Made by a program: the position numbers and the translations under genes
Origin: Pirellulales bacterium
Lineage (GTDB): Bacteria; Planctomycetota; Planctomycetia; Pirellulales; Pirellulaceae
Assembly: GCA_046349935.1 (NCBI GenBank)
Contig: JAXMBK010000012.1
Location: 77,556 to 141,555 of the forward strand
Direction of reading: 5' to 3'
DNA length: 64,000 nt
The notes under the pieces: generated by a model
Database searches by the model: none
The model's input: the letters and a program-made list of their open reading frames with translations, nothing else
What the model was told of the DNA's origin: nothing
Part shown: positions 8,305 through 27,529 of the stretch, one piece after another
Layout: the number at the start of each line of letters is the position of its first letter
Position numbering within the stretch: position 1 is the stretch's first letter

Positions 8305-10356
8305 CTACTCGCTCGACTGAACTGCGGCAACGCGGAAGCCCAGGCCGTAGTTCCGGCTTGACGGGTCGACCCTGTCGCGAAGCGCCGACCGGCAGTAGCT
8401 GGGCCTGCTGCCCCAGCTCCCGCCTCGGAAGACCCGGTGCGAGCCCTCGGACGGGCCGATGGGGTCTGCCTTAAGCGATGACTCGTAACTGTCGTACCAG
8501 TCTGAGCACCATTCGTTGACATTCCCATGCATGTCGTAGAGTCCCCAGGCATTCGGAACGTAACTTCCAACGCGCGTGGTGCGTGCAAGGTATTTACCTT
8601 TGGTGCTCGTGCCGTACGGAGTGTTGCCATCGCAATTCGCTCGATCCCCGTTCAAGACGCTGCCGAAGTGGAAGGGCGTCGTCGTCCCGGCTCGACATGC
8701 ATACTCCCATTCGGCTTCCGTCGGCAGTCGATACCGAAGGCCTTTCGCCCGTTCCGCGGGCAAGGCAGATAAACGGCGACAAAACTCGACAGCCTCTTCC
8801 CAACTCACCGACTCTACCGGAAAGCGACTTGTGTCTAGTCCCGCTACGTCATCCTTTCCCTCACCGTCCGGACTGAAGTCACTCGGGTTCTTCCCCATGA
8901 CGCGCAGGTACTCTTCCTGCGTCACCTCGTACTGGCCCAAATAGTAGCCCTGGGTGATTCGTATTTGATGTCGAGTCTCGTTGTCAAAACGCTCCGCTTC
9001 CTCTTCCGGCGACCCCATCCAGAATTCACCCGCCGGGATGTACGCCAACTTCATACCCACGTTGTTGACGGTGATTGCCCCGGGTTGCGGTCGGCCGTGG
9101 TTCGCCCGCCGATCCAACTCTCCACGCACATACGGCACAAACAACGCTACTCGCGCCTTCCCATTCACAAAGTCGCGAGTCGCCGCCAACAGCTCCTGAT
9201 CGGCGTCCTGACGCGGATCGAGCCGCAATAAGATCTCCGCCAGTTGGGACTGCAGTTCGCTCGTGAAGGCACCCGTCGTCGGTTGGCGACGCACACTTGC
9301 CACCAGCGCCGCTAAGTCACCGGCCTTCTTCGCCAGCGGCAATTCACGAGCCGCTTCCGGTCCTTGGTACGACGGCGACTGTTTCTTCTCCGGGTCGCCC
9401 GGGCGACGACGACGATTCTGATCTTCGGTCCACCTCCGCACCGATCGTTCCACGTACCCGGCCACCGAGCTCAAACGCACCACATTCTGATCGTCCGCCG
9501 ACGCGCCGCCCCGTAGGGCCTCGAGCAGCGCGTACGTAAAAACTCCATGCCCAGAACCGCCTAGTTCCGAATGTTCGTAACTGAATTCTCCCACGTCGCA
9601 CGATACTAACTTCGACTGCCCCGTCGGCTTCTTCAGAAGCTCCAGAAAATCGGCCGTCATCGCCCGTCCGCTCGCAATCCGGCTAGAGCGAGCGCCATCC
9701 GACAACCGTTCCTGGCACGCGTCGACCAGCAGCAGCCGATGGCCGGCCTGCGACGCGTTCATCTGCTCTTCCACCGACGACAAGCGGATGGCCGTATCCT
9801 CCAGGAACGTGCGCAATCCGTCGCTCGGCATCACATATCCCACGCGTTTATCCGTGAAGCCATGGGAACTGAATGACACGACCAGCAGGCCCGACTTGGG
9901 CTGAACACCCTGACGCGTCCGCACGAACGATCGCAGAATTGTGCTCTTCTCCGCCCCAACGACCTGTACGCCGAGTTGCTTCAATTCCGCCAGGTGACGC
10001 GTCACGCGTTCGCCCGACGGTTCGCCCGAAATCGCCAAGTAACACTGACGCGCGGGCAGCAGCTTCAATTCGGCGACGAACAAGTGACACTGTTCGACGG
10101 CGTCATTGACTGCGAACCGCAGCGGTTGCATATCGGGATCGGCCGTGAATTGGTTCACCCCAACGAACAACCCACCGTTCCCTGACGACGCGACATCTGA
10201 CAGCGGCGCAAACAGCGAAGCTCCACCGCTGGCTGCGCCCTCGACGACCAGACTGCGCCCCGCCGCGGCCGTTCCGTTCGATGCGTCTTGCGCCCAGCTC
10301 AGCGAAGCGCCCAGGACTACCAACAAGCACCACGTCGAAGAAATTGACCGTCTCAA
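8305..10356 (-). CDS. secreted caspase-like (peptidase C14) protein with C-terminal FGE-sulfatase/C-type-lectin-fold domain; remote DGR target
   Basis: Signal peptide. Caspase His/Cys dyad context (SFSSHGF, LLLVDACQ). C-terminal FGE-family motifs (GSPEEE, VTQEEY, SWEEAVEFCRRLS, RLPTEAEWEYACRAG, GLYDMHGNVNEWCSDWY, RGGSW). The 3' end carries VR1. Confidence 0.85.
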   Translation of the reverse strand: MRRSISSTWCLLVVLGASLSWAQDASNGTAAAGRSLVVEGAASGGASLFAPLSDVASSGNGGLFVGVNQFTADPDMQPLRFAVNDAVEQCHLFVAELKLLPARQCYLAISGEPSGERVTRHLAELKQLGVQVVGAEKSTILRSFVRTRQGVQPKSGLLVVSFSSHGFTDKRVGYVMPSDGLRTFLEDTAIRLSSVEEQMNASQAGHRLLLVDACQERLSDGARSSRIASGRAMTADFLELLKKPTGQSKLVSCDVGEFSYEHSELGGSGHGVFTYALLEALRGGASADDQNVVRLSSVAGYVERSVRRWTEDQNRRRRPGDPEKKQSPSYQGPEAARELPLAKKAGDLAALVASVRRQPTTGAFTSELQSQLAEILLRLDPRQDADQELLAATRDFVNGKARVALFVPYVRGELDRRANHGRPQPGAITVNNVGMKLAYIPAGEFWMGSPEEEAERFDNETRHQIRITQGYYLGQYEVTQEEYLRVMGKNPSDFSPDGEGKDDVAGLDTSRFPVESVSWEEAVEFCRRLSALPAERAKGLRYRLPTEAEWEYACRAGTTTPFHFGSVLNGDRANCDGNTPYGTSTKGKYLARTTRVGSYVPNAWGLYDMHGNVNEWCSDWYDSYESSLKADPIGPSEGSHRVFRGGSWGSRPSYCRSALRDRVDPSSRNYGLGFRVAAVQSSE
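8314..8451 (-). repeat. DGR variable repeat VR1 (remote)
   Basis: ~138 bp matching TR 23253..23391. About 17 mismatches lie at TR adenines (coding strand) and about 6 elsewhere. Covers the RGGSWGS...LGFRVAAV region. Confidence 0.75.
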
Positions 10357-10559
10357 GGAATAACTCCGAGGGAATCGCCTTCAGCCTGTCTCGCGCCTCT
10401 GTCATATGACGCCCATCATCCGGGAGCGACGGCCGTCGTGCAAATTGCGCCCGTTGATTTTTAGCGCGATACGACAGCCTTGCAACACACCCACTTCGGG
10501 GTATTATCTTACGTCCTCGAAGGGTGCAGTTCCGGGACAACACTTCGTCCAGGTGAATT

Positions 10560-11810
10560 ATGTGTGCAAATGGTCTTGGGACCGCTCCGGCCCGTTTATT
10601 CCTGATGGCGGCGTTCGTTTGGGGCTTGACCGCGTTCGTGCATGACTCGACCATGGCGAACGAGCCGACACTGAGGCCGCCCAAGCTCTACGTCGTGCTG
10701 CTGATTGACACGGACAGCAATTTGGCAGCCGATGTCGCAAAAGACCGCGACAATCTTCAGCGCATCCTCTCCGAGGCCTTTGCAACTCGCCCACACCGTT
10801 TCGAGGTGACCGTCCTGCAGGGCCGCCAAGCGACTCGCGAGCAAGTTCTCGCCACTCTGAACGCACTTCGCGGCAAGGTTCGCGAGAACGATTCCGTCTT
10901 CGTTTACTACTCTGGCCACGGCGCCACGCTCCTCAACGACGGCGGACACGCCCTGACGCTTCACCACGACCAAAGGACCCAGAGTCGTTTCTTGCTGCGA
11001 TCCGAAGTGCTGGAAGCGATGCGTTCGTCGTCGCCTCGACTGAGAGTTTTGCTGACGGACTGTTGCAGCAAAATTCCCGAACAGTTGCGAGGACGCCTAC
11101 TCCCCGCGGCCCCCAAAGCAACTTGGCCTGTCATGGACACGTTGTTCTTTCAACACCAAGGACTCACCGACATCAATGGCTGCCAACCGAACGCCTTTTC
11201 CTGGAGTTATTGGGACGCAGACGGGCCTAAAGGAGGCACTTTCACACTCGCCCTCGTCCCCCTCCTTTGCACGAAGCGAGACGACATCAATCCCGTCTTC
11301 GGCGTCAGCGATGGAATCGTCAACTGGCGTACATTCACGAATCCACTCAAACGCGACACAGATCGACACTATCAGTCACTACGCCAAGCGCTGCTTGCGG
11401 ATCCATTGATCGCCGAGTCCGAAAAGTCGGCAATGCGCGACCAGCTCGAACAAACTCCGGAGGTCTTCTCACTCGCCACGTTGGCCCCGCAACCGATCGT
11501 TGACAATGCGTGGATGCTGGGCATCGAACATACCTCCGCCGTTGAGAACGGCAAACCCGTTGTTTACATCGTTCGAGTTTACCCCAACACGCCGGCGGAG
11601 ACGGCAGGCCTGCGTCAGGGCGACACCGTCGTGTCGATCAACGACATCCGAGTCAACGACCGCGAGCAACTTGCGCGTTTGATCGACTATTCGGACGGTC
11701 GCATTAGGCTGTGCTGCCGTAGAAATGGCGAACAGAAATCGTTCGACATCCCCCTGAAGCCCGTAAAGCCCGCTCCGGTCGCGCCCCCCGCGCCTGCGAT
11801 ATCGCGTTGA
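10560..11810 (+). CDS. caspase-like (C14) domain protein with C-terminal PDZ domain
   Basis: N-terminal hydrophobic segment. YYSGHGA and LLTDCCS dyad contexts. C-terminal PDZ-like block (VYIVRVYPNTPAETAGLRQGDTVVSINDIRV). Confidence 0.75.
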   Translation: MCANGLGTAPARLFLMAAFVWGLTAFVHDSTMANEPTLRPPKLYVVLLIDTDSNLAADVAKDRDNLQRILSEAFATRPHRFEVTVLQGRQATREQVLATLNALRGKVRENDSVFVYYSGHGATLLNDGGHALTLHHDQRTQSRFLLRSEVLEAMRSSSPRLRVLLTDCCSKIPEQLRGRLLPAAPKATWPVMDTLFFQHQGLTDINGCQPNAFSWSYWDADGPKGGTFTLALVPLLCTKRDDINPVFGVSDGIVNWRTFTNPLKRDTDRHYQSLRQALLADPLIAESEKSAMRDQLEQTPEVFSLATLAPQPIVDNAWMLGIEHTSAVENGKPVVYIVRVYPNTPAETAGLRQGDTVVSINDIRVNDREQLARLIDYSDGRIRLCCRRNGEQKSFDIPLKPVKPAPVAPPAPAISR

Positions 11811-11864
11811 GCCACCAAAATCCCTATCGAAGACGTCCCCTTCCTCGTATCGTGGAGCCCATGA

Positions 11865-12464
11865 ATGCGTTCGATCGCTCTCGCCTCTAGCATCGTCTTT
11901 ACGGTCTGTCTCTTAATCACGTCGGAAGCCTCCGCCGTCAATTTTGAGCAAGTTTACTTTCGCGATGACGGCACCGTCCTTCTGCAGATCCATTTCAATG
12001 GCGGCATTACCAAGAGATCCAATGCCTCGTGGGACGCCCGTCGCACCTCGAAAGGTGAACTCTACTACCAGTGTCGATATCGGGCGAAAAATGCTGCGGG
12101 TCAGGTCGTAAATGAGCAAGTCCTGTACTACTTTGTCGATGATCCCGTCGATGGCAACACCGATGCTTCAAACCATTGGGTCTACTGGTACAGCGTAAAG
12201 ACGGAGGTGATTTGGGGGCGATGCCCCACCAAGAATCATCCCAACTATCGTCAATGGCTGGCAGCCAAGGGACCGGACCTGTGGCAGGTAGTTCCCAAAG
12301 CAGCTCGGCCCGCCCTGAAAGGCGAGCTGCGAATCTCCGCTGTCGGGCCGAGATTCGCTCTGGAAGTAATCGGCTTGAATGACGAGACGATGCCGAAGGT
12401 GGAGCCTACGACCGCCAATGATGCGATTTTGTGCATCGACCTTGAGAACGCGATTTTCAGCTGA
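11865..12464 (+). CDS. secreted hypothetical protein
   Basis: Signal peptide MRSIALASSIVFTVCLLITSEASA. No known domain. Confidence 0.45.
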   Translation: MRSIALASSIVFTVCLLITSEASAVNFEQVYFRDDGTVLLQIHFNGGITKRSNASWDARRTSKGELYYQCRYRAKNAAGQVVNEQVLYYFVDDPVDGNTDASNHWVYWYSVKTEVIWGRCPTKNHPNYRQWLAAKGPDLWQVVPKAARPALKGELRISAVGPRFALEVIGLNDETMPKVEPTTANDAILCIDLENAIFS

Positions 12465-12548
12465 GTCTCGCTTCGCGCGCAATTCGACGGCGGACATTTG
12501 TCCGCCGTCGGAGATTGCGTCGCGATTCACCCCTTTGGCCGCCGGTTG

Positions 12549-13508
12549 TTACTCCGCCTTCGTCAGCTCAGCAGTCGGAGTCGGCCCCGACTGCTGCTGC
12601 TGGATGGCCGTCTCAGCAGTCGGCGTCGTTTCAAACTCGATCACCAGCGCCGATTCCTCTTGGGCCGACGTCGTCGTCGGCTCTTTGGATAGGGGCACTT
12701 CTCGCTTCGTCGAAGTCGAAACCGCGTCCACGCCCGTCGGTTGGCCGGCTTGCACCGGGATCTCCTCCAGGAATCGGCGGGCCGCCTCCTGGCTGGCCAG
12801 CGCTGGCGACGTTCCTCGCGATTCATCCGCCATCAGTTCCGCAACGCTGCGAACCGGATTGTCCCGCAACACGCGTTCGTTGACGTTGAACAAGGCGTCG
12901 ACCTGCGCGATGAGTTCCTCCCCGACCGCGGTCAACTCGCGCGACTCGAGCAGCTCACGCTGCGTCCCGATCGCCGCCAGCTGCGTTTCGGTCGCATTGA
13001 GTCGGACCACGATCTCCCGAACGCGCTGGTTCGACTCGTCCTGGATTCGCTGGAGCCGCTGGAGCGACTTCTCGAACCCCTCCGCCTCCGCCAACAACAG
13101 GCTCACTTGCGCCACCGCCTGCTCTTCGGTGTAAGCCGCGTTGCGGACGACGATCGGAAATGCGCTTTGCTGGCGAGCTTCCTGGAACCGCTGGCGAAAC
13201 TCCTCCGTCAGTTTCTGCGCTTGATCCCGCAGCACCAGTTGCTCGCGCACCTTGCCGCTCAGCTGATCGGCGTTTCCCACCAGCTCGAAACGGCACTTTT
13301 TCAGCAGAGCTGCTTCGGCCTTGAGCTTCTGCTCGACGTGCCGCGTGAAGCCCGCTGGATCAGCGCGTCGCGCTTCCTCGGTCCAACCGAACCAATCGCG
13401 GCCTTGCATGGCCACCGTGGTCCGCACAGCCGGCGAAACACGATAGGCGCCCGCAAGCAACGCCATGGCCACCACCGACACTCCCACATGTCCCCAAGAA
13501 ATCTTCAT
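12549..13508 (-). CDS. membrane-anchored coiled-coil hypothetical protein
   Basis: N-terminal TM/signal segment, long heptad-like charged region, Thr/Ser/Pro-rich C-terminus. Confidence 0.45.
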   Translation of the reverse strand: MKISWGHVGVSVVAMALLAGAYRVSPAVRTTVAMQGRDWFGWTEEARRADPAGFTRHVEQKLKAEAALLKKCRFELVGNADQLSGKVREQLVLRDQAQKLTEEFRQRFQEARQQSAFPIVVRNAAYTEEQAVAQVSLLLAEAEGFEKSLQRLQRIQDESNQRVREIVVRLNATETQLAAIGTQRELLESRELTAVGEELIAQVDALFNVNERVLRDNPVRSVAELMADESRGTSPALASQEAARRFLEEIPVQAGQPTGVDAVSTSTKREVPLSKEPTTTSAQEESALVIEFETTPTAETAIQQQQSGPTPTAELTKAE

Positions 13509-13695: not shown

Positions 13696-13728
13696 AAAAA
13701 AAGGCGGACCGACGTTTGTCGGCCCGCC
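13696..13728 (-). terminator. Rho-independent terminator after gene 13750..15138
   Basis: GC-rich hairpin ggcggaccgac/gtcggcccgcc (one mismatch, loop gttt) followed on the minus strand by a 7-T run. Confidence 0.55.
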
Positions 13729-13749
13729 CGCGTGAAGGAAATTCGTTGT

Positions 13750-15138
13750 CTATTTCCGCAGGTACAGCGGCGGACTGGTGTTGTCGATCAGCTCCGGCGT
13801 TTGCGTCGCGCCCGGAAAGCGATCCGCGACGTATTCCGGAACCAGCTTCTTCAGTTGAGCCGCGGCCTCCGTGAGCGAGAGCGGCCCCTGCGATTCGCGA
13901 ATCAGCTGGTCGAGGAACTTGGTCATCACCGAGAGATCGCCTTCCTTGCGGACGAACGAAATCTGGGCGGCGCGCGACGAGACCAAAAGCGCCGTCTCCT
14001 TCTGACCGATGTCCTTGGTGTGCTGCAATTCGCCGTCCAGCATGTCGAGGTCACCCAGCGACTTGACGCCGTCTAGCCCGCGCAGCCCCTTCTCGGCGGT
14101 CGCTTGTCCGCCCGAGTGACACGTGTCGAGCAACAGCACGACTTTCCGTCCATCCAGATGCTGCATCAGCCGGCCAAAGTGATCGTCCAGCAGCACCGAG
14201 TTTCGCAGCGTCTCCGGATTGTTGGTTTGCGCGTCGTAGGTCACCAGGAATTCGTCGAGCCCATCCGTTTCGTCTCCGTTATCATCGGCGCACCGGCCGC
14301 CATGCCCCGACCAATAGATGAAGACCGTGTCGCCCGGACGAGTTCCCTGGGCCAACTTGCCCTGAATGTGTTCGACGATCTTGGCGAGCGTGGCTTGCTC
14401 GTCAAGAAGAAGATGTGCTTCATCCAAGCCGCCGTACATCTTCATCGTCTTGAACATGGTTTCGGCATCGGGGCGGCAGGCGGGAAGCGGCCGAATGGCC
14501 TGGTCTCGGTACTTCGCGAGCCCGATAAACAAGCCCACGCGACGCGGTCCGCGGACGGCAGGAGTGCCGTCTTTTGCAATGGTCGTGAAGTTGACCGAGT
14601 GCTCGGCCCATTTGGCGGGCTTTCGGTCGGCCCCTTCGACAAACGCCGCTTTGATACCCTGGTAATCGACCTCCGTCGCAGCGGCCTTGCGCAACCCCTC
14701 ATTGTCAAACGGCAACCGCTCCTTCGTGACAATCGCCTTAAGTACTTCCTCGCCGAAGGGAGCGCCGATGCGAATCCGAAACGCCGGGGCGTCTGGGGGC
14801 GGAACCAACGTATCTTTGTTGGCCTTAATTTCGTTGTCCGTTTGATACTTGTTCGGAAACAGACACCGCACCGTTCCCTGCGAATCGCGATTGAACAGGT
14901 ACAGGTAGCCATCGGCGCTCGACCGCACCGTCGCCGTCAAGGTTTCGCCCTCTCGATAGATGCGGTTCTCGTGATCGACGCTCACGCGCACCAGAAACGC
15001 CTGATGCGGGTTCTGCACTTCCTCCACGAACAGCCCGCGCGGAACAACTTGCTCTTGGCCGTAGCCCCAGCTGGCGAACGCCAGGATCATCACGCCGGTC
15101 GCCATCTTCCAGGCCCCTTGCTTCCCAACCATTTTCAC
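13750..15138 (-). CDS. caspase family protein with N-terminal DUF4384-like domain
   Basis: Signal peptide. DUF4384-like block (GYLYLFNRDSQGTVRCLFPN). Caspase dyad contexts IYWSGHGG and LLLDTCHSGG. Confidence 0.8.
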   Translation of the reverse strand: MKMVGKQGAWKMATGVMILAFASWGYGQEQVVPRGLFVEEVQNPHQAFLVRVSVDHENRIYREGETLTATVRSSADGYLYLFNRDSQGTVRCLFPNKYQTDNEIKANKDTLVPPPDAPAFRIRIGAPFGEEVLKAIVTKERLPFDNEGLRKAAATEVDYQGIKAAFVEGADRKPAKWAEHSVNFTTIAKDGTPAVRGPRRVGLFIGLAKYRDQAIRPLPACRPDAETMFKTMKMYGGLDEAHLLLDEQATLAKIVEHIQGKLAQGTRPGDTVFIYWSGHGGRCADDNGDETDGLDEFLVTYDAQTNNPETLRNSVLLDDHFGRLMQHLDGRKVVLLLDTCHSGGQATAEKGLRGLDGVKSLGDLDMLDGELQHTKDIGQKETALLVSSRAAQISFVRKEGDLSVMTKFLDQLIRESQGPLSLTEAAAQLKKLVPEYVADRFPGATQTPELIDNTSPPLYLRK

Positions 15139-15195
15139 GCTCCTTTTCCAAACGTTGTTGACTCGTCAGTTTCCAAGTTGTTTTGCTTTACCAAG

Positions 15196-17098: not shown

Positions 17099-17932
17099 TT
17101 ACCGGTTCCCCGCAGGTTCGACCTTCACCAAGCGACTCCGCGTCACGCCGTTGTCGGAATAGGCCGGCCACGGCAAGTTGGCTTGCCACAACTGGCGGAC
17201 TTGCCGATTGCGTGTGTTCAACTGCACGTTGGCGATCGGCTCGCGGGTGAGGCTCTTGGAGAACTCTGCATGCAAGAGGCCCTTCACTTGGTCTTCTTGC
17301 GCGCCGCTCACCGATTGTTCAATCGCGTAAGAGAAACTCAGGTCGTCGAACGCCTTCACCCCGGCCGGCCCTGGAATGGCCTCGAACTCGAACGCCTTCG
17401 TCCCCTTGGTGTCGGCCTGCTGAAACACGGGCAGATCCACGGGCAGCAGGACGAGCATCGCCACGACGACGGGGGACGGCTGGCCGGTTGGAAACGCGTA
17501 ACTTTCCGTCATGGTGCGTACTTCGCCTGCAACCGTATGCTGCGTTTGCACCTGCCGTAACGCATAGGAATCGCGGTCGACCCACAGTCGAGTGACCGGC
17601 GCTTGCACCTGGGCGTCCAAGCAGTCGATCTGGACGCGAAAACAGGGCCGCTCCGCCACTTGCTCCTCGCCCTGCACCGTAAAGCGCCACGTGAGCGGCT
17701 TGGCGAGGGGAGCGTCCTTGTCGATCGTTTCCCGACGCTGAACTTGCTGCGTCTGGGTTTCAATCTCCCAGCGGTCGCCCACTTTCCAGCGGGGACGCAG
17801 CTTTTCCACGACCAGTTCCCCGTCACGGGCGGTCGCGGCGTTGGGCTGCTGCGCGAACGACCAGGCCCACCCGCCGGCGACGCTCGCCAGCAGCGTGCCG
17901 CAACACACGAGGTTCACAACGTGTTTTCTCAT
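17099..17932 (-). CDS. secreted hypothetical protein
   Basis: Signal peptide. Same strand as, and contiguous with, 15196..17094 and 13750..15138 (likely operon). Confidence 0.5.
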   Translation of the reverse strand: MRKHVVNLVCCGTLLASVAGGWAWSFAQQPNAATARDGELVVEKLRPRWKVGDRWEIETQTQQVQRRETIDKDAPLAKPLTWRFTVQGEEQVAERPCFRVQIDCLDAQVQAPVTRLWVDRDSYALRQVQTQHTVAGEVRTMTESYAFPTGQPSPVVVAMLVLLPVDLPVFQQADTKGTKAFEFEAIPGPAGVKAFDDLSFSYAIEQSVSGAQEDQVKGLLHAEFSKSLTREPIANVQLNTRNRQVRQLWQANLPWPAYSDNGVTRSRLVKVEPAGNR

Positions 17933-18621: not shown

Positions 18622-21600
18622 TTGCAACCAGCGACCATGTTCCGACGCGGACCCGTGGTATGTCTGTCGATCGAAAGGAATCTCCCGATGCATCGTGTTG
18701 CCTTTCCAGTTCGCATCATGACCGTCGCCTTGTTGTTGTTGGGCGGCGTCTTGGGATGGAATGGCACCGCCCAGGCGGAAGGGCCGTCGACGCTCGACGT
18801 TCAGCAGGCGATCGGTCGATTCTTGGCCGATAAACGAGACTTTGGCGATAACACGAAGTGGGCCGCATTGCGTCGACGCGTGCGGCTGGAACCGGCGATG
18901 GCTTCGGTGATTGATGGACGAATTCACGTCGCCGCACCGATGCTTTGGAAACTTCCGACCGACGAGTCGTCTCAGGCGGTGCGGGAACTTGAGTTGTTAC
19001 TCGCGGCCGCGCTCGAAAAAGCGGCCGGCTCGGACCGACGATTTCGCGGTCGTCCGGCATTCGATTGGGTTCGAGAAAGTACGATTACGACCGCCCCCCC
19101 GGTGGCCATTCGCCGACTAACTGAGGTCAGCGAAGTCGAGGTAATCAGTGTGATCAACGACTATGTGGAGTCGCTGGACCGCGAGAATCGATGGGAAGCC
19201 GAGGGCCTTGGTCCACTTCAACGCAGCCTGCAGCTGCGCGGGCCAAACCTGGGCGTCAGCGAGGCGCGGTTTTGGGGCGACAAGTTGTCGCTCGGGTGGT
19301 CCGCCCTCGTGCGCGATGAGAGCGTTTGGCCATCCGTCACCCCCGCGGTGCGAGCGGCTGCCGCTCGCGCGGCCAGGGAACGTGCCAACGACCGCGACTG
19401 GGCGACGCTCAACAATTTCAATGATCAAGTTCGAACTACCGCGAACCGCCTCCGCGAACGGTACGCCCCGCTCCTTCAACCACTCGTCATCCGAGCGTTG
19501 ACGACGCACGTTGCCGCTCCAGCCTCCGCCCCGCTCCTCGAAGCGGCATCGCCAGCGAGTCTACAAGTCGACTTGTTTCTCGACATCCCCGCGGAATTGA
19601 GGAGGGTCGAGCGCGCAGGAGCAGTCGCAGCGGCGATGCCCCCTGGCGCCGGCAATCGGCGCATTGTGAACGCGGCCGGCAACGACTCAGCTGGCTACAC
19701 GTTTCGCTTTGTCAAAGCCGAGAAGTTGCGACGACTCTCGGCCGAGCAACAACCTGAGCTGACGCATGTGCGGTTAGAAGAAGCAGCCGACTCGGCATCC
19801 GTGAAGCGAAGAGAGTTTCAGCTCGACCTACAAGGATTCTCCGGCGGTACGCTCTCTGCCCTTGAGTTTTCCCCGGACGGCCGACGTCTCGCTGCCGCCG
19901 GCGACGTGCTCCGTATCTGGGACTTAGAGAAGGGCGTGTTGGAGCGAACGTTGCGAGCCGGCCAGATTACCGAGCGTGCAACGGGTTTTCGCGACATTGC
20001 CTATAGCCCAGATGGAAGACTCTTGTGCGCAGCCATGACCGGGACGAAACACCGGATCTGGGTCTACGAAACAGGCGATCTTTCGCGCGTGAAGTTCGCG
20101 TTGGACGGACATGACGAGGAGGTCGAACACCTGGCGTTCTCCAACGACGGCCGACACTTGGCGACCGCCGATATCCAAGGACGCGTCTTTCTTTGGGATT
20201 GGCCCAAGCGCCGCAAGATTTGGGGCTTCAAGTTCGAACACGCGATCAGCCACCTGAGCGTTTCGGAGTTTGAGGTATTGGCGATTGACAGGACGCTCGA
20301 TTTCTCGCGAATTCCGCTCGATCTGGATGCCCCTGGCGGTTGGTTCGGCGACGAAGACCCGCTCATTACGCTCATCAACAACTCGACTTACCCCGGCGCG
20401 AACGCCAAGCTATTCCCTCGTTCGGTGGCCGTTTCGAAAGACTCGCAGACTTGTTTGATCGGCGGGCGATCGGGCCGCGACGGCCAAAACGACAACTACC
20501 ACTGGTGCGCCGCCTTCACCATGGAACAATCGCGTCGCGGCGAACCGCACTCGTCACAGGCGGCGGTCGACCATCGATACACACTGCTGTGTTGCGCGCT
20601 TTCGACCGACGGACGGCTGTGTGCCAGCGGCGATGCGCTTGGCTTGGTTCAAGTATGGGACCGTAAGTCCAGCTTGATCAAACATCGCTTTGAACCGTTC
20701 GGAAAGGGAAACCTGAGCGTCGACTTCGGCGAGTCGCTTGCGGATTGGCGGCTGGGCCGTGATCGCTACATCGGAGAACAGTGGAAGTACAACCATTGGG
20801 CGCCGTTGCACCTTCAGTTCGACTTTGGCAAGCGTATTCTCTCTTCCGTCTCCGCAACCGAACCGCGCGATGCAAGAATCCGCGATCACCAACGTCTTTC
20901 CTACGACTACGATGCAAACCTCCTGAAAATCTACGAGAACGATCAGCTCCAAACTTCCGTCGACTTCAGCTCGCACGGCGCTAATTGGAAACTGTTCGGC
21001 TACGGGTTTTACCCCGTGCAGGGACTCGAAGCCGGCTATGGCGTCATCGTCTGCTCGGAAGGAGGCGGCGTCTTGTGCCTCGATCCGAAGACGCTCCGCC
21101 CTAAACGCATCTTCATCGGCCACAATAGCCGCGTCTGGAGCGCTGCTGTCTCGCGCGACGCGATGAATGGTAAGCGTCTCATCACTACCGGCTCGGACGG
21201 CGTCATCCATGTCTGGAGCCTCGAGCAGTTTCAGCCGACGTATAATTTGGCCGCGTTGGTCGACGAGGATCGCAAGATCACTTACATCTATCCCGGCACG
21301 TCGACGGCCGAACGGCTGGCGATTGGCGATCGCCTCGTGTCGATCGGCGGTCTGACTCCCATCGAATGGCTGGATAGCGACAAGGCCAAGTTAGCGCCCG
21401 ACGATCCAGTGACCGTGGTCATCGAGCGTAACGAACAAAACTACCGCGTGCCGGTCGTCTTGTCCGAAATGGGCGATCTCACGCGGCCTCTCGTCAGCGC
21501 CGTCCTTTCGGAAGATGGCAGCGAATGGGTGATCTGGACGCGGAGCGGCTACTTCGATTGCTCGCCGCAGGCCGGCCGACTGCTCGGCTGGTTGGAGAGT

Positions 21601-22956
21601 CGCGAGGGGGATCAGTCGGCGCAGTTCATCGACGGCGGCCAACTTCGCAAGCTCATGCACCGGCCCGACGTCGTCAACCTGACGCTCACCCTGGGCGACG
21701 AACAACTCGCGCTAAGGCAGGCCGATGCGCTGCGTAACCCAGACGCTCCGCCTCCACCCACGCCCGCTCCCGGCCACGGTAACGTCCCCGTGCCGCTGGC
21801 CTCTACCATCCCGAGCCCTCCCCGCGTGCGTTTGCTGCAACCGCTGGAAGGGTCGGCGACGGTGACCGCCGAAGAGACGGTGGAGGTGCGAGCGGTCGTG
21901 ACGGCGCCTGCCGGTCGGCGACCGGAGATCGTGTTTCGCGTGAACGAGTCGGTCGCCGCCTCGCGCAGCCTGGTCGTCGAGGGGATCGCCCCAGCGCTGC
22001 CGCCGCCGCCGGCTGGCTTCGAGCACTATTTCGCCGGTCAAACGATTTCGCTGCGCTTGGGCTCCAACGTCATCCAAGTGCTGGCGCGCCTGCCCGAAGT
22101 CCAGACTGCCGAGGGCACAAGTTTCGTCATCGTGGAGCGGCGTCCTACCACGGCAAACGGCACATCGACGAAACCCACGCTCCACTGGTGTTCGATCGGC
22201 GTCAACGATTACCAGGGAACGGGTTTGGCCAGCCTGCGATTCGCGCACAACGACGTCGATAAGGTGGCCGAGGCGCTGCTGAAGCGCAAGCAGAAGCCGC
22301 GTTTCCCCTATCAGGACGTGAAGGTGCATCGGCTGGTGGACCAGCAAGCAAGCAAGACGGGGATCGGCGAACTGTTCGACGCCCTCACGAACCCGAATTC
22401 GCCGGATCGCGTTCGTACGGGTGATACGGTGAGCATTCATATCAGCGCGCACGGCGGTAAAGTGGCGGGCACGGACGGCTACATGCTGGTTCCGCATGGC
22501 GGCGACCCTCGCAAGCCGCGCGCAACCTGCGTCTTGTGGAGCGAGTTTGTGGAGTTGGCTCATGCGTTGGGCCAAAAGAATGTCCGCCTACTGTTGTTCG
22601 TGGATACCTGTCGAGCCGGCGGACTGGGCGACATCGAGAGTGGAGCGGCACGGGTCTTCACGAGCGAATTGAGCGGACTGGTCTTCACGGCCAGCGGGGC
22701 CAAGCAGAATGCGTTGGAATCGCCGACTTGGGAGCATGGTGCATTTTCCTTGGCGTTACGCGAGGCGATTGAAGGGCAGCGGCTGTCCGACGTCGAATGG
22801 GCCAGCGGCTTACAGCCCGACCAGGATCGAAACGGCGTCGTCGAAGTACGCGAGCTCGAAGCGTTCCTCCACCGGCGAGTCAAATCGCTCACCATGGACC
22901 AACAAGCCCCCGATTACGCTTGTCCCCGCATGGGGCTCGATCCGGTGTTGTTCTAG
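18622..22956 (+). CDS. large secreted multidomain protein: WD40 repeats, PDZ-like domain, C-terminal caspase-like (C14) domain
   Basis: Signal peptide at the internal Met (MHRVAFPVRIMTVALLLLGG). WD40-like repeats (VWD, HVWS, LWDW). PDZ-like block (IGDRLVSIGGLTPIEW). C-terminal caspase dyad contexts ISAHGG and LLFVDTCRAGG. Confidence 0.75.
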   Translation: MQPATMFRRGPVVCLSIERNLPMHRVAFPVRIMTVALLLLGGVLGWNGTAQAEGPSTLDVQQAIGRFLADKRDFGDNTKWAALRRRVRLEPAMASVIDGRIHVAAPMLWKLPTDESSQAVRELELLLAAALEKAAGSDRRFRGRPAFDWVRESTITTAPPVAIRRLTEVSEVEVISVINDYVESLDRENRWEAEGLGPLQRSLQLRGPNLGVSEARFWGDKLSLGWSALVRDESVWPSVTPAVRAAAARAARERANDRDWATLNNFNDQVRTTANRLRERYAPLLQPLVIRALTTHVAAPASAPLLEAASPASLQVDLFLDIPAELRRVERAGAVAAAMPPGAGNRRIVNAAGNDSAGYTFRFVKAEKLRRLSAEQQPELTHVRLEEAADSASVKRREFQLDLQGFSGGTLSALEFSPDGRRLAAAGDVLRIWDLEKGVLERTLRAGQITERATGFRDIAYSPDGRLLCAAMTGTKHRIWVYETGDLSRVKFALDGHDEEVEHLAFSNDGRHLATADIQGRVFLWDWPKRRKIWGFKFEHAISHLSVSEFEVLAIDRTLDFSRIPLDLDAPGGWFGDEDPLITLINNSTYPGANAKLFPRSVAVSKDSQTCLIGGRSGRDGQNDNYHWCAAFTMEQSRRGEPHSSQAAVDHRYTLLCCALSTDGRLCASGDALGLVQVWDRKSSLIKHRFEPFGKGNLSVDFGESLADWRLGRDRYIGEQWKYNHWAPLHLQFDFGKRILSSVSATEPRDARIRDHQRLSYDYDANLLKIYENDQLQTSVDFSSHGANWKLFGYGFYPVQGLEAGYGVIVCSEGGGVLCLDPKTLRPKRIFIGHNSRVWSAAVSRDAMNGKRLITTGSDGVIHVWSLEQFQPTYNLAALVDEDRKITYIYPGTSTAERLAIGDRLVSIGGLTPIEWLDSDKAKLAPDDPVTVVIERNEQNYRVPVVLSEMGDLTRPLVSAVLSEDGSEWVIWTRSGYFDCSPQAGRLLGWLESREGDQSAQFIDGGQLRKLMHRPDVVNLTLTLGDEQLALRQADALRNPDAPPPPTPAPGHGNVPVPLASTIPSPPRVRLLQPLEGSATVTAEETVEVRAVVTAPAGRRPEIVFRVNESVAASRSLVVEGIAPALPPPPAGFEHYFAGQTISLRLGSNVIQVLARLPEVQTAEGTSFVIVERRPTTANGTSTKPTLHWCSIGVNDYQGTGLASLRFAHNDVDKVAEALLKRKQKPRFPYQDVKVHRLVDQQASKTGIGELFDALTNPNSPDRVRTGDTVSIHISAHGGKVAGTDGYMLVPHGGDPRKPRATCVLWSEFVELAHALGQKNVRLLLFVDTCRAGGLGDIESGAARVFTSELSGLVFTASGAKQNALESPTWEHGAFSLALREAIEGQRLSDVEWASGLQPDQDRNGVVEVRELEAFLHRRVKSLTMDQQAPDYACPRMGLDPVLF

Positions 22957-23252
22957 GCGTTGAACCGCGGAGCGGTCCACAACGAACCGCAGGACAGGCT
23001 TTCAGCCTGTCTCTGGTCGCCGGAGCGTCGTTCCCTCACGGAATCGTAGATGCCCCAAGCGCCTCGCGGGCGGGCCATCCAAGAACGACCGCATGACGGC
23101 TCTCACAAGAAAAACCGCGTCGAGCGTTCGATCAGGGCATCTCCCCAACCTACCAGCACCACGCGGCTCAACGATCGTTTGCCCGCACGGCCGTTCTCTG
23201 CCGCGAGGGACCGGAAAGCAGTCGGTTCCGTCCTGGGGATTCTCTGCTCCCC

Positions 23253-23391
23253 GGATGGAGCTGCGGCAACACGGAAGCCCAGGTTGTTGTTCCGGTTCGT
23301 CGGGTCGTTCCTGTTGCGGTTCGACGACCGGCAGTTCCTGGGACTGTTGTTCCAGCTCCCGCCCCGGATGACCCGGTTCGAGCCTTGTGAC
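23253..23391 (-). repeat. DGR template repeat (TR)
   Basis: ~139 bp, 16 nt downstream of the RT stop. In the target frame it encodes SQGSNRVIRGGSWNNSPRNCRSSNRNRNDPTNRNNNLGFRVAAAPS with 11 AAC (Asn) codons. The two VRs differ from it almost only at its adenines. Confidence 0.85.
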
Positions 23392-23406
23392 TGCTCACCA
23401 GCCTAT

Positions 23407-24396
23407 CTATAGCGTGCGACGACGAAAGCGCCAACTCGCGACGCCGGCTGCTTGCGTGAATGCGACAAGCGCCGTCGCACGCTGCTGTAGTTCAAGGCCG
23501 CTGATTTCACCGCGTTCGTGCTGCCGTTCGAGGCTGGTAATCTTGCGTTGGTAGCGTACGCGGCTGCGACGATTCAGCGTCGCTCCCCACGCGTACACGC
23601 GGCAACCCAGGAAGTCGACGCCCAGATGGCTTCGATTCACGAATGCGTTCGGCTTAAGTTCCAATCCCAGTTCGCCCAGGAAATCTTCGTGCGCCGACTC
23701 CTTAAGTTCTCGGAGCTGATCGCGCGAATCCGACCATAGCAGCATATCGTCCATGTAGCGCACGTAGCCTGGGACGCGCCAGCGCTCCTTGACCCAGCGA
23801 TCGAACCAGCCAAGGTAGAAGTTCGCAAAGTGCTGCGAGGTCAGGCTGCCAATCGGCAATCCTCGTCCTAACTTCCCGCGAAAGCCGGCAATCACCCTTG
23901 CAAACAGCGACAGAAGACGAGCATCTTTGAACAGTCGCGTTAAGCGTGCGTTCAACGGTTGATGCGGGATGGAGTCGAAATAGCGACGAATATCGAGCTT
24001 CAGATACCAGCCGTAACGACGAGAGAATTGCTGCGCACGCAACACGGCGGCAACCCGACCGCGTTCGCGTCGGCAAGCAAAAGTATCGTCGATCAGCCAA
24101 CGATCGAAATAGGGTTCGCAGACATTCATGATCGCATGATGAAGCACCCGTTCCCGAAAGCAAGGCGCGGTGATGATGCGCTCTTTCGGATCGTGAATCA
24201 CGAACTGGCGAAACTCACCGATCGCCAGCCGATCCGTCAAGAGGTCCGTTTGCAGCGCATCGAGATTCCGCTCCAAACAGGCTTGGAACGCACGCGCCTC
24301 GGCACGGTCGCGTTTTCCCCGTAACGCCCTGGCGACCGCCAGTCGCAGGTTATCGCGGTCGGCGATGCTGTCAAACAGATTCGCCACCCGTTTCAT
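23407..24396 (-). CDS. DGR-type reverse transcriptase
   Basis: RT motifs ITAPCFRERVLHHAI, YLKLDIRRYFDSI, LPIGSLTSQHFANFYL (the [LIV]GxxxSQ hallmark of DGR RTs) and YMDD. Start taken at the internal ATG 24396; the long ORF begins at 24480. Confidence 0.85.
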   Translation of the reverse strand: MKRVANLFDSIADRDNLRLAVARALRGKRDRAEARAFQACLERNLDALQTDLLTDRLAIGEFRQFVIHDPKERIITAPCFRERVLHHAIMNVCEPYFDRWLIDDTFACRRERGRVAAVLRAQQFSRRYGWYLKLDIRRYFDSIPHQPLNARLTRLFKDARLLSLFARVIAGFRGKLGRGLPIGSLTSQHFANFYLGWFDRWVKERWRVPGYVRYMDDMLLWSDSRDQLRELKESAHEDFLGELGLELKPNAFVNRSHLGVDFLGCRVYAWGATLNRRSRVRYQRKITSLERQHERGEISGLELQQRATALVAFTQAAGVASWRFRRRTL

Positions 24397-24922
24397 GCAC
24401 GTTCGCCTCCAGCAACTGATCCAGCAACTCCAGGAAGCGCGGCCCATACTTTTCGCTGCGTGCGTCTCCGACTCCAGCAATCGCTGTGAGGGCGGACTTC
24501 GTTCGCACGCGATTCTGCACCATCTGGGCCAATTGCTCGTTGGTGAAGACCGTGTAGATGGGAACCGCCTCCGCCTGCGAAATCTCGCGGCGTAGATCCC
24601 TTAAGCGAGCGAACACCGCGAAGTCCGCCTCGTTCAGGATCTGTTTGTAGTCCTTGCCCTTGCTCTTCCCACTCGAGACGGCGGAGGAACCGTCTCCTGC
24701 CCGGCTCAGTTCCACGTAATCAATGCAGAACGACCAGAACGAGTCGGAACCTTGCTCCACAAAGCGCCGATAAACCGCCAACACGCGATGGCTGCGCAGA
24801 AACCCATTGAGCGCGACTTCGGCCGCCTCCAAATCGCGCACCGGCACCACGAAGAACTTAAACGGCATCCGAACTCCTCGATGATGGGCCGCTCCGCCTT
24901 CCACTGCGGCGTGCCGAGGCAC
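24371..24922 (-). CDS. DGR accessory protein with HRDC-like domain
   Basis: C-terminal block VFTNEQLAQMVQNRVRTKSALTAIAGVGDARSEKYGPRFLELL resembles an HRDC domain. Lies between the target gene and the RT and overlaps the RT start. Confidence 0.6.
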   Translation of the reverse strand: MPRHAAVEGGAAHHRGVRMPFKFFVVPVRDLEAAEVALNGFLRSHRVLAVYRRFVEQGSDSFWSFCIDYVELSRAGDGSSAVSSGKSKGKDYKQILNEADFAVFARLRDLRREISQAEAVPIYTVFTNEQLAQMVQNRVRTKSALTAIAGVGDARSEKYGPRFLELLDQLLEANVHETGGESV

Positions 24923-24991
24923 GGGCTCCGCCCTCTCCGGCCCCGAACGCCTCCGCTCCAGGCTCCGCTCACTCTCTGACCGGCTCCGCCG

Positions 24992-27529
24992 TTACTCACT
25001 GGACGGAACTGCGGCAACACGGAAGCCCAGGCTGCTGCTCCGGCCCGCCGGGTCGACCCCGCTGCGGCTCGACGACCGGCAGCTCCCGGGACTGCTGCCC
25101 CAGCTCCCGCCCCGGAGGACCCGGCCCGAGCCTCGAGAAGGACCGGTCGGGTCCGCCGCTGGCGACTTGCGATAATAGTCACTGTCGTACCAATCACTGC
25201 ACCACTCTAACACGTTCCCTTGCATATCGTACAAACCCCAACCGCTCGGTTTAAACTCGCCCACGGGACTCGTGAACGACCACCGATCATCAAACGAAAA
25301 GCTGGGATATTTGTTGTAATCGAGGCTCGGGTACTTTCGCTCGAAAGAGGCATCTTGAAAGTTGCCGAAACCTTCCAGGCTACGCGGGCGATCGCCGGTG
25401 GGAAAACGCGTCGTGATTCCCGCACGGCAAGCGTATTCCCATTCGGCTTCTCGGGGCAGACGATAGCCGATTCCCGAGACTTCCGAGACCGTGTCGCCGT
25501 CAATCCGGTAACACTCGGTTTTCCCTTCTTGCCGACTCAGCCAATTGCAGTAGCGCACCGCGTCGTTCCAACTCACGTTGACCACCGGATGATCCTCCGA
25601 CTGCGGCCAACCCGTGTTCCGCCAATTGAATTTCCGATCTTGCTTCGAGAATTTTGTCTCTGTGTCGTAACCCCACCCACCCTGCTGGTCCCGTTCGGCA
25701 TCTGTTTCGTACCCAGTCCCCTCCACGAACGACGCGAACTGCCCCTTCGTCACCTCGTAAACGCCCAGCCACAACGGACGCGAGATCTGCACCCGGTGCG
25801 CCGGCGATTCATCCGAGATATCAATTCCAGCCAGCGCGATCCCAGCAGCTTCCAGGTTTGCCGCCGTCTCGTCGCTCCCCATGACAAATTCCCCTGCCGG
25901 AATGTACGCCAACTTCATCCCCTTGGGACTTGTCACGACGTCGCCCGCTTTCGGTTTTGGACGAGGCAGGTGTAGCTGCCACGACGACGAGGTCGGAAAA
26001 CCATCCAGCGACCAGATCTTCTCGCGTGATCCTTGCGAGACGCGTGCGTAGTACCGTCCCGACGACGTCGGCAGCACCGCGCTCGCGAGCTCCAGGCTCG
26101 CTTGCCCACCGGCGCTCGTCGTGGTCCCCCCCAGCGTCTTCCACTCCGTGCTTCCCGTTTCCTGCCACTGCAGCTCCACTCGTACTCCCGACGCCAACGG
26201 CGAGTCCTCCGCGGAACCGTCGCGAACGAGGAACGTCGCCCGAACCATTCGCGGTGGGAGCCGGCCGCGGCGGTCGAGTTCACCGCGCAAGTAGGGCACA
26301 AACACATCGCCGGGGACCTTGCCGCTCACGAAACCTTGCGTCGCGGTCAACAGCACGCGATCGGGTTCCTGCCGCAAGTCGAGCTTGGCCAGCGTTTCCG
26401 CCAACTGCGACCGCAGTTCTCCGCTAAAGGCGGTCGTGGTGGGATGTTTGCGTACGGTGGCGGCCAGCGTCGCTAGGTCCCCCGCCTTCCTCGCCAGCGG
26501 CAGTTCGCGAGAACTCATGGCGCCCGCCGAAAACGGCGTCTGAGCCGGCAGTTTTGCTTCCGCCGACCAGCTTGCGAGATACTTCGAGACAAAGTCTTCG
26601 ACGGCCCTCAACCGCACGAAGTTCTGCCCATCCGCCTCGGCCCCGCCCCGCAGCGCTTCCAGCAGCGCGTAGGTGAACACCCCGTGCCCTACGTTGCCCA
26701 GAGCCGGGTTTTCGTAGCTCAACTGCTTCGGACTGCAGGACGCCAGCTTGTACTGACCGGTTGCCGATACAAATGCCTGCTTGAACGCCGCGTCCATCCC
26801 CTGCTCCGCGGTCGGCGGCCCGACCGACTTCGCGGCGATTCGCTCTTGGCAAGCGTCCACGAACAGCAAGCGATGTCCCGCCTGTGACTGTTCCATGTCC
26901 TCTTCGACCGTATCCAGCGCCACCGCCGTCAGCTTCAAGCGGGTTTTCAATCCGTCGCTCGGCATCACGTACGGTCGGCCCTCGGCCATGAACCCGTGTG
27001 AACTCACCGAACAAACCAACAAATCCGCAGCCTTCGTACCGATGCCGCGCACGGTTTCCAATTGCGAGAGGATCTCGTTGCGATCCGCCGTGCTGACGAC
27101 GGCCTTGGCCGCCTTCAGTTGTTCCAAGTGTCGCTGGACCGATGGCGCCGTCGGCTCGCCCGACAGCAACAAGATGCAGTTCTCGGCCGGAATGAGCTTG
27201 AGTTCGAACACGAAGAGATACGCTTGCTCGACCGCGTCGTGAACGGCGAACTGCAGCCGGTTCAGTTTCTTGTCCTTCGTGAATTCGTTGACGCCGATAA
27301 ACAGCCCCGCGTTGCCCGACGGCGCGGCCCCTGCGACAGGCTCAAATACGGTCCCTTCGACCACCAGACTGCGGCTTGGCCTCGCCGACGGGCCCTCTTG
27401 CCCGCTGGAGAGCGCGATGCACGTGAAGACCAACGCTGCCGTAGCCAAGACGCGATGGGAAGCACGCAGGACATCAGTGGTGGCGCCGATCATGATCGAT
27501 CTGTTCCCTGGAGCAGTGCGGGTTGCCAA
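24992..27529 (-). CDS. secreted caspase-like (C14) protein with C-terminal FGE-sulfatase/C-type-lectin-fold domain; adjacent DGR target
   Basis: Signal peptide. Paralog of 8305..10356 (VSSHGF and LLFVDACQ dyad contexts). Extra central Ig/beta-rich region. C-terminal FGE motifs (HRVQISRP, WGLYDMQGNVLEWCSDWY, RGGSWGS). The 3' end carries VR2. Confidence 0.85.
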   Translation of the reverse strand: MATRTAPGNRSIMIGATTDVLRASHRVLATAALVFTCIALSSGQEGPSARPSRSLVVEGTVFEPVAGAAPSGNAGLFIGVNEFTKDKKLNRLQFAVHDAVEQAYLFVFELKLIPAENCILLLSGEPTAPSVQRHLEQLKAAKAVVSTADRNEILSQLETVRGIGTKAADLLVCSVSSHGFMAEGRPYVMPSDGLKTRLKLTAVALDTVEEDMEQSQAGHRLLFVDACQERIAAKSVGPPTAEQGMDAAFKQAFVSATGQYKLASCSPKQLSYENPALGNVGHGVFTYALLEALRGGAEADGQNFVRLRAVEDFVSKYLASWSAEAKLPAQTPFSAGAMSSRELPLARKAGDLATLAATVRKHPTTTAFSGELRSQLAETLAKLDLRQEPDRVLLTATQGFVSGKVPGDVFVPYLRGELDRRGRLPPRMVRATFLVRDGSAEDSPLASGVRVELQWQETGSTEWKTLGGTTTSAGGQASLELASAVLPTSSGRYYARVSQGSREKIWSLDGFPTSSSWQLHLPRPKPKAGDVVTSPKGMKLAYIPAGEFVMGSDETAANLEAAGIALAGIDISDESPAHRVQISRPLWLGVYEVTKGQFASFVEGTGYETDAERDQQGGWGYDTETKFSKQDRKFNWRNTGWPQSEDHPVVNVSWNDAVRYCNWLSRQEGKTECYRIDGDTVSEVSGIGYRLPREAEWEYACRAGITTRFPTGDRPRSLEGFGNFQDASFERKYPSLDYNKYPSFSFDDRWSFTSPVGEFKPSGWGLYDMQGNVLEWCSDWYDSDYYRKSPAADPTGPSRGSGRVLRGGSWGSSPGSCRSSSRSGVDPAGRSSSLGFRVAAVPSSE
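25001..25138 (-). repeat. DGR variable repeat VR2
   Basis: ~19 of ~104 aligned core positions differ from TR. Every one of them is a TR adenine on the coding strand. Confidence 0.85.

Follow-up and report, generated by a model that had tools for sequence, protein, structure and literature searches.

A planctomycete island of predicted exported caspase-family proteases with a probable embedded diversity-generating retroelement

Gene map and retroelement features

Between positions 8305 and 27529 of a 64-kb stretch of a metagenome-assembled genome (MAG) from the Pirellulales (Planctomycetota), with a G+C content of approximately 60% (the whole stretch analysed, hereafter the window), a cluster of genes for caspase-like proteins surrounds the features of a diversity-generating retroelement (DGR): a reverse transcriptase (RT), an HRDC gene, a template repeat (TR) and two variable regions (VRs). 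An original prediction made from this DNA had rightly recognized FGE/C-type lectin (CLec) domains in the cluster but took them as just another partner domain of the caspases and overlooked the DGR that organizes the locus. Our gene map combines a list of open reading frames (ORFs) with a Pfam domain search. Two genes matter most here. The 845-amino-acid (aa) ORF at 24992-27529 (gene J) is 100% identical to MFO0905758.1 of a Pirellulales bacterium MAG, its best database match, and the 683-aa ORF at 8305-10356 (gene A) is MFO0905747.1; both carry the NCBI name 'SUMF1/EgtB/PvdO family nonheme iron enzyme'. An exact look-up of the gene J protein in assemblies returned no record. The features of the putative DGR and its upstream neighbours are as follows.

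8236-8314, minus strand: GC-rich 79-nucleotide (nt) element, copy 1, downstream of VR1 (repeat D4), with hairpin potential
8305-10356, minus strand: gene A, Peptidase_C14 (1.1e-11) and FGE-sulfatase (1.2e-48) by Pfam; predicted remote variable protein
8313-8446, minus strand: VR1, 3' end of gene A, approximately 15 kb from the TR
23170-23262, minus strand: conserved element directly 3' of the TR (post-TR element), with a motif order common to seven related loci
23252-23385, minus strand: TR, non-coding, starting 18 nt past the RT stop codon (repeat family D1)
23407-24396 (ORF open up to 24480), minus strand: RT, RVT_1 (3.4e-17), motifs IGSLTSQ and YMDD
24371-24868, minus strand: accessory gene with a C-terminal HRDC domain (7.9e-17), overlapping the RT start by 26 nt
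24887-24965, minus strand: GC-rich 79-nt element, copy 2, downstream of VR2; candidate initiation of mutagenic homing (IMH)/hairpin target-recognition element
24992-27529, minus strand: gene J, C14 (5.9e-11) and FGE-sulfatase; predicted DGR-proximal variable protein
25000-25133, minus strand: VR2, 3' end of gene J
27558-28766, minus strand: anti-sigma-like protein with an N-terminal zf-HC2 domain, one transmembrane segment near residue 113 and C-terminal TPR
28763-29983, minus strand: extracytoplasmic function (ECF) sigma factor, Sigma70_r4_2 (5.8e-09) and TIGR02937 (44.1 bits); its stop codon overlaps the anti-sigma start by 4 nt

Reading along the minus strand, the order is ECF sigma factor, anti-sigma-like gene, gene J, HRDC accessory gene, RT and TR. 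The RT carries an [I/L/V]GxxxSQ motif, a mark of DGR-type RTs. The ORF list holds no Avd-sized ORF on the cassette strand.

The evidence for template-directed diversification comes from a 172-nt repeat present in three copies, at the 3' end of gene A (8299-8470), directly downstream of the RT (23238-23409) and at the 3' end of gene J (24986-25157). When aligned in register, the RT-adjacent copy carries adenines where both coding copies vary. Across the 134-nt core compared, with the TR read on the minus strand from 23385 to 23252 (32 adenines in 134 nt; binomial p values), VR2 differs from the TR at 22 positions, 20 of them TR adenines (91%; p = 5e-11), and VR1 at 29 positions, 18 of them TR adenines (62%; p = 1.3e-5). 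The TR holds 11 AAC codons in the target reading frame, at which the VRs present GGC, AGC, CAC, TAC, GTC, GAC and CTT, as is usual for DGRs. Each VR stops 8 nt short of the stop codon of its FGE-sulfatase-domain gene, A or J. Outside the adenines, identity to the TR is 98% for VR2 and 89% for VR1, versus 72-76% between A and J in the neighbouring FGE-coding DNA; both VRs therefore appear to have been homogenized against the TR, recently in the case of VR2 and at an earlier time for VR1. Taken together, a DGR-type RT, an adenine-biased TR/VR pair, VRs in the 3' end of a lectin fold and an HRDC accessory protein identify the two genes that combine a caspase with an FGE domain as predicted targets of a DGR. 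The A>G changes of VR2 turn AAC mostly into AGC or GGC, yielding a Ser/Gly-rich binding face for which RT bias and selection are indistinguishable as causes.

The GC-rich 79-nt element follows the stop codons of both VR-bearing genes (87% identity between copies) and is absent after the TR. At VR1 it folds as DNA into a hairpin of -25 kcal/mol (z = -2.6 versus shuffled sequences), and a 37-nt part of it recurs with 92% conservation after a caspase-FGE gene in a sister MAG (GCA_046349915.1). A second element, directly 3' of the TR, shows the order CAGCTC, a variable hairpin, GAACMGR, ATCCYGYCCCT, a length-variable hairpin closing in GGG, and an A-run (GGGCAAA). This order recurs in eight HRDC-type DGR loci from several phyla, namely the window, L005 (11119-11270), L006, L011, L013, L017, L018 and L019, and within the DGR RNA the element may act as a spacer-like stretch capable of self-priming. 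From a crude alignment that is poor across the length-variable inserts, RNAalifold obtained 3 pairs only, and no Rfam family was found within 7000-31000.

Relatives of the RT with 36-56% identity were found at 24 loci, in 16 species-representative genomes and 8 metagenome contigs, spanning Planctomycetota, Verrucomicrobiota, Kiritimatiellota, Lentisphaerota, Bacteroidota, Desulfobacterota, anammox bacteria, Chloroflexota and Cloacimonadota. An HRDC homolog adjoins the RT in 23 of them (the exception, L036, is a 1.2-kb contig), and an FGE target and HRDC stand beside the RT wherever the contig extends far enough. The order FGE target, HRDC, RT and TR is kept in at least 10 of the 24 loci, the others having the same parts in a different order or being cut by contig ends. 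The nearest relative, L005 (56% identity), has as its target a protein made of a Ser/Thr kinase, a coiled coil and an FGE domain (kinase-CLec); none of the DGR targets at the 24 loci has a caspase N-terminus.

Caspase-like domains, lectin folds and the surrounding island

Between genes A and J, and apart from the retroelement, the interval holds the following genes.

10560-11810, plus strand: gene B, C14 (9.2e-09) and C-terminal PDZ_6 (1.6e-10); motifs SGHG and DCC; predicted exported
11865-12464, plus strand: gene C, small protein directly after B, with no Pfam family; predicted exported
12549-13508, minus strand: gene D, helical, predicted membrane-anchored or exported; no significant family
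13702-13729, minus strand: intrinsic terminator after gene E, a 12-bp stem with 9 GC pairs, then a T-run
13750-15138, minus strand: gene E, DUF4384 (1.5e-22) and C14 (5e-15); WSGHGG and DTCHSG; predicted exported
15196-17094, minus strand: gene F, TGase_elicitor (8e-18), Pro/Thr linker and DUF4384 (5.2e-17); GYCHAWA; predicted exported
17099-17932, minus strand: gene G, weak LolA_like match; open beta-barrel of the LolA superfamily, predicted exported; first gene of the G-F-E operon
18622-22956, plus strand: gene H, 1444 aa, WD40 (1.3e-20) and a divergent C-terminal caspase-like domain (SAHG and DTC); predicted exported

Five of the six caspase-like proteins originally proposed were borne out (A, B, E, H and J). 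The sixth, gene F, proved to combine TGase_elicitor with DUF4384, and a profile built from the five window domains found no sixth caspase in the 64 kb. The expected partners were recovered by Pfam as Peptidase_C14 with FGE-sulfatase in both A and J, with PDZ in B and with DUF4384 in E, all four C14 matches lying above the 21.4-bit Pfam cutoff. For gene H, said to join a caspase to WD40 and PDZ, the WD40 repeats hold, the caspase is recognized by hhalign alone, and the marginal PDZ match (E = 0.084; 13 bits versus a cutoff of 27) leaves that domain unsupported. The C-terminal 295 aa of H match nothing in Pfam and no PDB sequence; compared with the profile of the other four domains they align at 97.8% probability (hhalign, E = 6.7e-13) with the His and Cys motifs in place, and the H ortholog of the sister MAG gives a weak PF00656 match.

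Catalytic residues are retained throughout. The S-x-H-G and D-x-C columns are invariant across the five window domains in a MAFFT alignment, as are the SHGF and DAC motifs in 43 homologs of gene J, so that the loss of His or Cys by which the original prediction could have failed is not seen. In gene E, WSGHGG and DTCHSG align with YSGHGG and DSCHSG of the yeast metacaspase Yca1 (PDB 4F6O), the Asp-rich loop included. With a caspase/hemoglobinase fold assignment and, for A, B, E and J, a match to the C14 domain model, we regard the five proteins as dyad-intact caspase-like proteins and predicted peptidases. Gene J comprises, in order, a signal-like N-terminus, the caspase-like domain, a helical linker, a transthyretin-like beta-sandwich and the C-type-lectin (FGE-sulfatase) domain; NCBI places its start at 27493, giving 833 aa and, in that numbering, a His166/Cys215 dyad.

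The FGE-sulfatase domains of A and J resemble a DGR variable protein more than an enzyme. The best PDB sequence match of the gene A domain is the Treponema DGR variable protein TvpA (2Y3C; 3.9e-31), which is the best or near-best match of the FGE domains. An AlphaFold model of gene J, built with 43 sequences, has a mean pLDDT of 88. Aligned with the copper-bound FGE of S. coelicolor (6MUJ), gene J has Ser in place of the first copper-binding catalytic Cys, at a hypervariable position, and a 3-aa deletion following the second, the same as in TvpA; the pair of copper-binding Cys of a catalytic FGE is thus incomplete. These domains are best read as hypervariable ligand-binding lectin folds resembling TvpA and, because the TR matches the last ~134 nt of A and J with adenine-specific differences, the two proteins as predicted hypervariable binders fused to a protease. 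Among the 43 homologs, positions matching A-containing TR codons have an entropy of 3.27 bits versus 1.09 bits elsewhere (p = 6e-8), consistent with a family-wide footprint of past or trans-acting DGR activity, a pattern that ordinary selection on the binding face could also have produced.

Signal peptides had been claimed for all proteins of the cluster, and all nine of A-H and J indeed begin with basic residues followed by a hydrophobic 12-mer (Kyte-Doolittle >=1.88); the RT, HRDC, sigma and kinase-FGE proteins of the window lack such an N-terminus. The proposed three-gene minus-strand operon from 17932 down to 13750 also stands: genes G, F and E form a tight row with gaps of 4 and 57 nt, closed by a 12-bp stem with 9 GC pairs and then TTTTTTGTTG, at 13729-13702. 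Gene F had been described as a DUF4384 protein with a papain-like GYCHAWA motif and a Pro/Thr-rich linker. Motif and linker (~80 aa) are there; the generic papain assignment gives way to TGase_elicitor (PF16683; 8e-18, 64.8 bits versus a cutoff of 25), which makes F a predicted transglutaminase-type thiol enzyme whose GYCHAWA we take to resemble the GQCWVFA motif of animal transglutaminases.

The view of this region as an exported-protease neighbourhood rather than a set of housekeeping genes is upheld by the five dyad-intact caspase-like proteins with signal-like N-termini and from the recurrence of the same gene set as an island in a second Pirellulales MAG. In that sister MAG (contig JAXMBL010000005.1, ~690-768 kb; L002-L004, L021 and L022), a 78-kb island holds orthologs of the sigma and anti-sigma genes and of D, G, F, E, H, B and C, together with at least 10 caspase-FGE paralogs and an IS110 transposase, and neither RT nor HRDC occurs in the 78 kb. 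The B-C pair is conserved there as adjoining orthologs, and gene D has a 58% ortholog beside G-F-E, with two further homologs in L023. Several of the sister-MAG paralogs have C-termini on a different scaffold (RCxRGGxF...VRCAxR), which hints at another VR family, or at a TR in a different part of the sister genome. The G-F-E module is also intact in a distant planctomycete, L028 (10001-14170; ENA ERZ24879762, a 10.2-Mb contig), where a WD40 protein lies upstream and the vicinity holds no caspase-FGE gene and no RT or DGR, and again in L029. Because G-F-E stands alone in that distant planctomycete, it is separable, and the window cluster is not one unit. The caspase-FGE family itself gave 87 matches, nearly all in planctomycetes, and most homologs examined have no RT nearby; the ~500-aa proteins that follow caspase-FGE genes elsewhere have no homolog in the window.

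Further genes of the window lie outside this cluster. On the plus strand, 34780-37623, 37974-42611 and 42735-47417 encode three large paralogous proteins with Ser/Thr-kinase and double-zinc-ribbon domains, all lacking signal peptides. In the first two, the C-terminal FGE-sulfatase domain matches neither the TR nor other repeats of the window; L005 diversifies the same kinase-CLec architecture. We considered and rejected these two genes as DGR targets, as their similarity to the TR exists at the protein level only, with many non-adenine differences, and the window holds no second TR. Between the sigma factor and the kinase-FGE genes are a GYF_2-domain protein (30944-33058, plus strand) and an FHA-domain protein (33151-34737, plus strand); planctomycete systems combining FGS-domain effectors or GYF-domain proteins are mentioned by Kaur et al. 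2020 (PMC7159879). Downstream of the kinase genes follow a tyrosine recombinase of the phage-integrase family (49510-50706, plus strand) and another Ser/Thr kinase (51403-53838); this entire region could represent a mobile or variable island of the genome. At the other end, plus-strand genes for two endonuclease/exonuclease/phosphatase-family proteins and a calcineurin-like phosphoesterase (881-2077, 2925-3881 and 5802-6440) show no link to the caspase cluster.

A proposed mechanism and competing readings

We consider it probable, with good confidence, that 8305-27529 represents an island of exported proteases of the caspase family in a planctomycete, in which an HRDC-type DGR is embedded. By the established DGR mechanism, the TR transcript would be copied by the RT into cDNA with misincorporation opposite adenines. 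The GC-rich 3' end common to the repeats and the conserved element downstream would guide this cDNA to replace the VR of J and, more rarely if at all nowadays, that of A. Some 12 Asn-coded positions would thereby be randomized on the ligand-binding face of the lectin fold. The domain layout predicts an exported protein in which a metacaspase-like cysteine protease with an intact dyad is coupled to a hypervariable binding head. By binding, this head would place the protease on changing ligands, either periplasmic or on the surface of the cell, be they phage parts, surface proteins of competitors or prey, or glycans. The PDZ, DUF4384 and WD40 caspase fusions and the G-F-E operon would be co-resident, separately conserved modules of an exported protease repertoire and not DGR targets.

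What such binding might achieve is suggested by the genes upstream. The ECF sigma factor scores above the 42.9-bit cutoff of TIGR02937, and the anti-sigma-like protein matches TPR_16 (2.5e-11), zf-HC2 (0.0026) and a ChrR-type anti-sigma model (4.8e-4), has its transmembrane-like window at residue 113, and is encoded on the same strand as gene J, ending ~30-65 nt upstream of it. The sister MAG has a sigma/TPR/C14 triad as well, and two further caspase islands contain sigma/TPR pairs. There are precedents in Myxococcus DdvA, a ZAS-transmembrane anti-sigma with a periplasmic TPR-CHAT domain (PMC11506125), and in the type III-E protease Csx29, which cleaves Csx30, a protein that binds RpoE and can have a DUF4384 C-terminus. 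Sigma adjacency, the recurring sigma/TPR pairs and these precedents support the idea of exported caspases acting on an anti-sigma factor: upon ligand binding, the caspase-lectin protein, possibly along with the caspases fused to PDZ and DUF4384, would cleave the periplasmic TPR part and free the sigma factor. However, a sigma factor is missing from the vicinity in three of seven caspase-FGE contexts, the sister-MAG caspase that follows sigma/TPR is not homologous to any window protein, and the proposal draws on gene adjacency and analogy; we rate it as tentative and rather unlikely. It would make the exported caspase-lectins hypervariable extracytoplasmic receptors feeding the upstream ECF sigma/anti-sigma pair, a 'split DdvA' arrangement that we likewise put forward as a speculative possibility. 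If true, a retroelement would continually re-tune the input of a transcriptional stress or defence switch, and the LolA/RseB-fold protein, like the caspases with PDZ, DUF4384 or WD40 partners, would supply additional inputs or steps in the same periplasmic proteolytic network.

Several observations weigh against an active DGR with exported targets. VR1 has 11 non-adenine mismatches, and its 62% adenine specificity is below the >80% criterion of PMC7517822, so that rewriting of gene A may be rare or lie far in the past. In VR2, 18 of the 20 adenine-site changes are A>G (VR1 is less biased, with 10 A>G, 6 A>T and 2 A>C), and its 79-nt element forms a hairpin no better than shuffled sequence (z = -0.6). 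A 123-nt VR pattern degenerate at adenines had 0 matches in metagenome contigs, and the VR comparison covers one assembled sequence, from which current mutagenesis is only inferred. Export was judged by a hydrophobicity heuristic, not by SignalP or a trained predictor. In six other caspase-FGE genomic contexts no RT lies within 10 kb, neither the 78 kb of the sister MAG nor five other loci of related caspase islands contain RT or HRDC, and a 720-aa caspase-FGE homolog (P0014) is identical in at least three metagenome samples (L025, L026 and L027) with no RT nearby; given these RT-less contexts and the identical P0014, DGR diversification is not general for the caspase-FGE family today.

Part of this evidence would suit a relic, in which mutagenic homing is past and A and J are now ordinary fixed paralogs: the non-adenine mismatches of VR1, the lack of VR variants in the metagenome scan, the sister-MAG paralogs without an RT and the constancy of P0014 across samples all fit such a history. 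Yet both the RT and the HRDC ORF are uninterrupted and retain their catalytic motifs, VR2 differs from the TR at only 2 non-adenine sites in 134 nt, the TR keeps its 11 AAC codons and the downstream cis element is conserved, which together make a relic improbable. Considerably less likely still is a cytoplasmic conflict or abortive-infection system, in which the lectin would sense an invader within the cell and the caspase trigger death. DGR-diversified CLec sensors do occur with caspase/CHAT effectors in such systems (PMC10907252 and PMC7159879), and the best NCBIfam caspase match is of the 'EACC1-associated type', albeit below its cutoff. A and J have signal-like N-termini, however, Pfam finds no STAND, MoxR, vWA or other NTPase component in the interval, and among the defence systems of PADLOC-DB v2 only generic 'caspase' and RT models match, with none for C, D, F or G and no gasdermin-like protein or other known defence component. 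That the FGE-sulfatase domains are enzymes (FGE or SUMF1/EgtB/PvdO iron enzymes) serving planctomycete sulfatases, the repeat being mere paralog similarity, agrees with the NCBI names and with Foldseek placing FGE structures first but is hardly credible with one of two catalytic Cys replaced, a TvpA-like best or near-best match and one repeat copy non-coding, beside an RT and differing at adenines.

Comparison with known systems

Among the known systems close to this locus, read as an island of exported caspases with an embedded DGR, are the cyanobacterial DGRs, whose variable proteins include orthocaspase-CLec and kinase-CLec fusions and for which distant targets and paralogs without diversification are also described (Vallota-Eastman et al. 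2020, PMC7517822). There as here, the VR sits in a C-terminal C-type lectin on an N-terminal orthocaspase-like peptidase, targets can lie kilobases away, and non-diversified CLec paralogs include Ser/Thr-kinase fusions, represented in the window by the kinase-FGE genes 34780-37623 and 37974-42611. Unlike the cyanobacterial variable proteins, which are mostly predicted to be cytosolic, the window targets have signal-like N-termini in a Pirellulales host, and their locus lies within an island of exported caspases directly behind an ECF sigma/anti-sigma pair. In gene content the window DGR corresponds to the HRDC-containing 'Architecture C', HRDC genes having been found in 4% of the DGRs surveyed (Wu et al. 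2018, PMC5758913). It differs from the Treponema denticola TvpA DGR (PMC5758913; 2Y3C), whose TvpA is a small lipoprotein without a protease domain, in having its TR downstream of the RT and two protease-fused targets.

The two-domain architecture of A and J was recorded in a survey of bacterial caspase homologs, where FGE-sulfatase was the fifth commonest partner domain of these homologs, with 33 sequences (Asplund-Samuelsson et al. 2012, PMC3501461). Its authors interpreted FGE as a modifying enzyme and made no retroelement link, whereas in the window the link to a TR and RT is explicit. The conflict-system DGR sensors (Dore et al. 2024, PMC10907252; Kaur et al. 2020, PMC7159879) share hypervariable CLec/FGS domains with caspase-like effectors and several targets per locus, some with signal peptides; unlike them, the window has no STAND NTPase or MoxR-vWA core, and its protease is fused to the sensor and apparently exported. 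To Myxococcus DdvS/DdvA (PMC11506125) the window pair is alike in its ZAS-type cytoplasmic domain, single transmembrane helix, periplasmic TPR and association with a caspase-family domain. Here, in contrast, a gene of its own encodes the caspase, together with a hypervariable lectin domain, and a functional link is drawn by analogy.

If our assignment holds, the NCBI 'nonheme iron enzyme' names of A and J would be corrected to protease-tethered hypervariable binders. The function of bacterial caspase homologs is largely open, and the window would offer a concrete, testable setting in which a predicted exported, dyad-intact caspase carries a programmable binding head and has several sister caspases and an ECF sigma/anti-sigma pair as neighbours. 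The at least 10 fixed paralogs of the sister MAG versus the retroelement of the window suggest two routes to receptor diversity in one family. Orthocaspase-lectin DGR targets and HRDC-type DGRs are already known; particular to the window locus are its planctomycete host, the apparent export of both targets, the conserved caspase island and the ECF sigma/anti-sigma pair upstream, by which DGR-targeted caspase-lectin fusions would be extended from cyanobacteria to planctomycetes and to the extracytoplasmic space.

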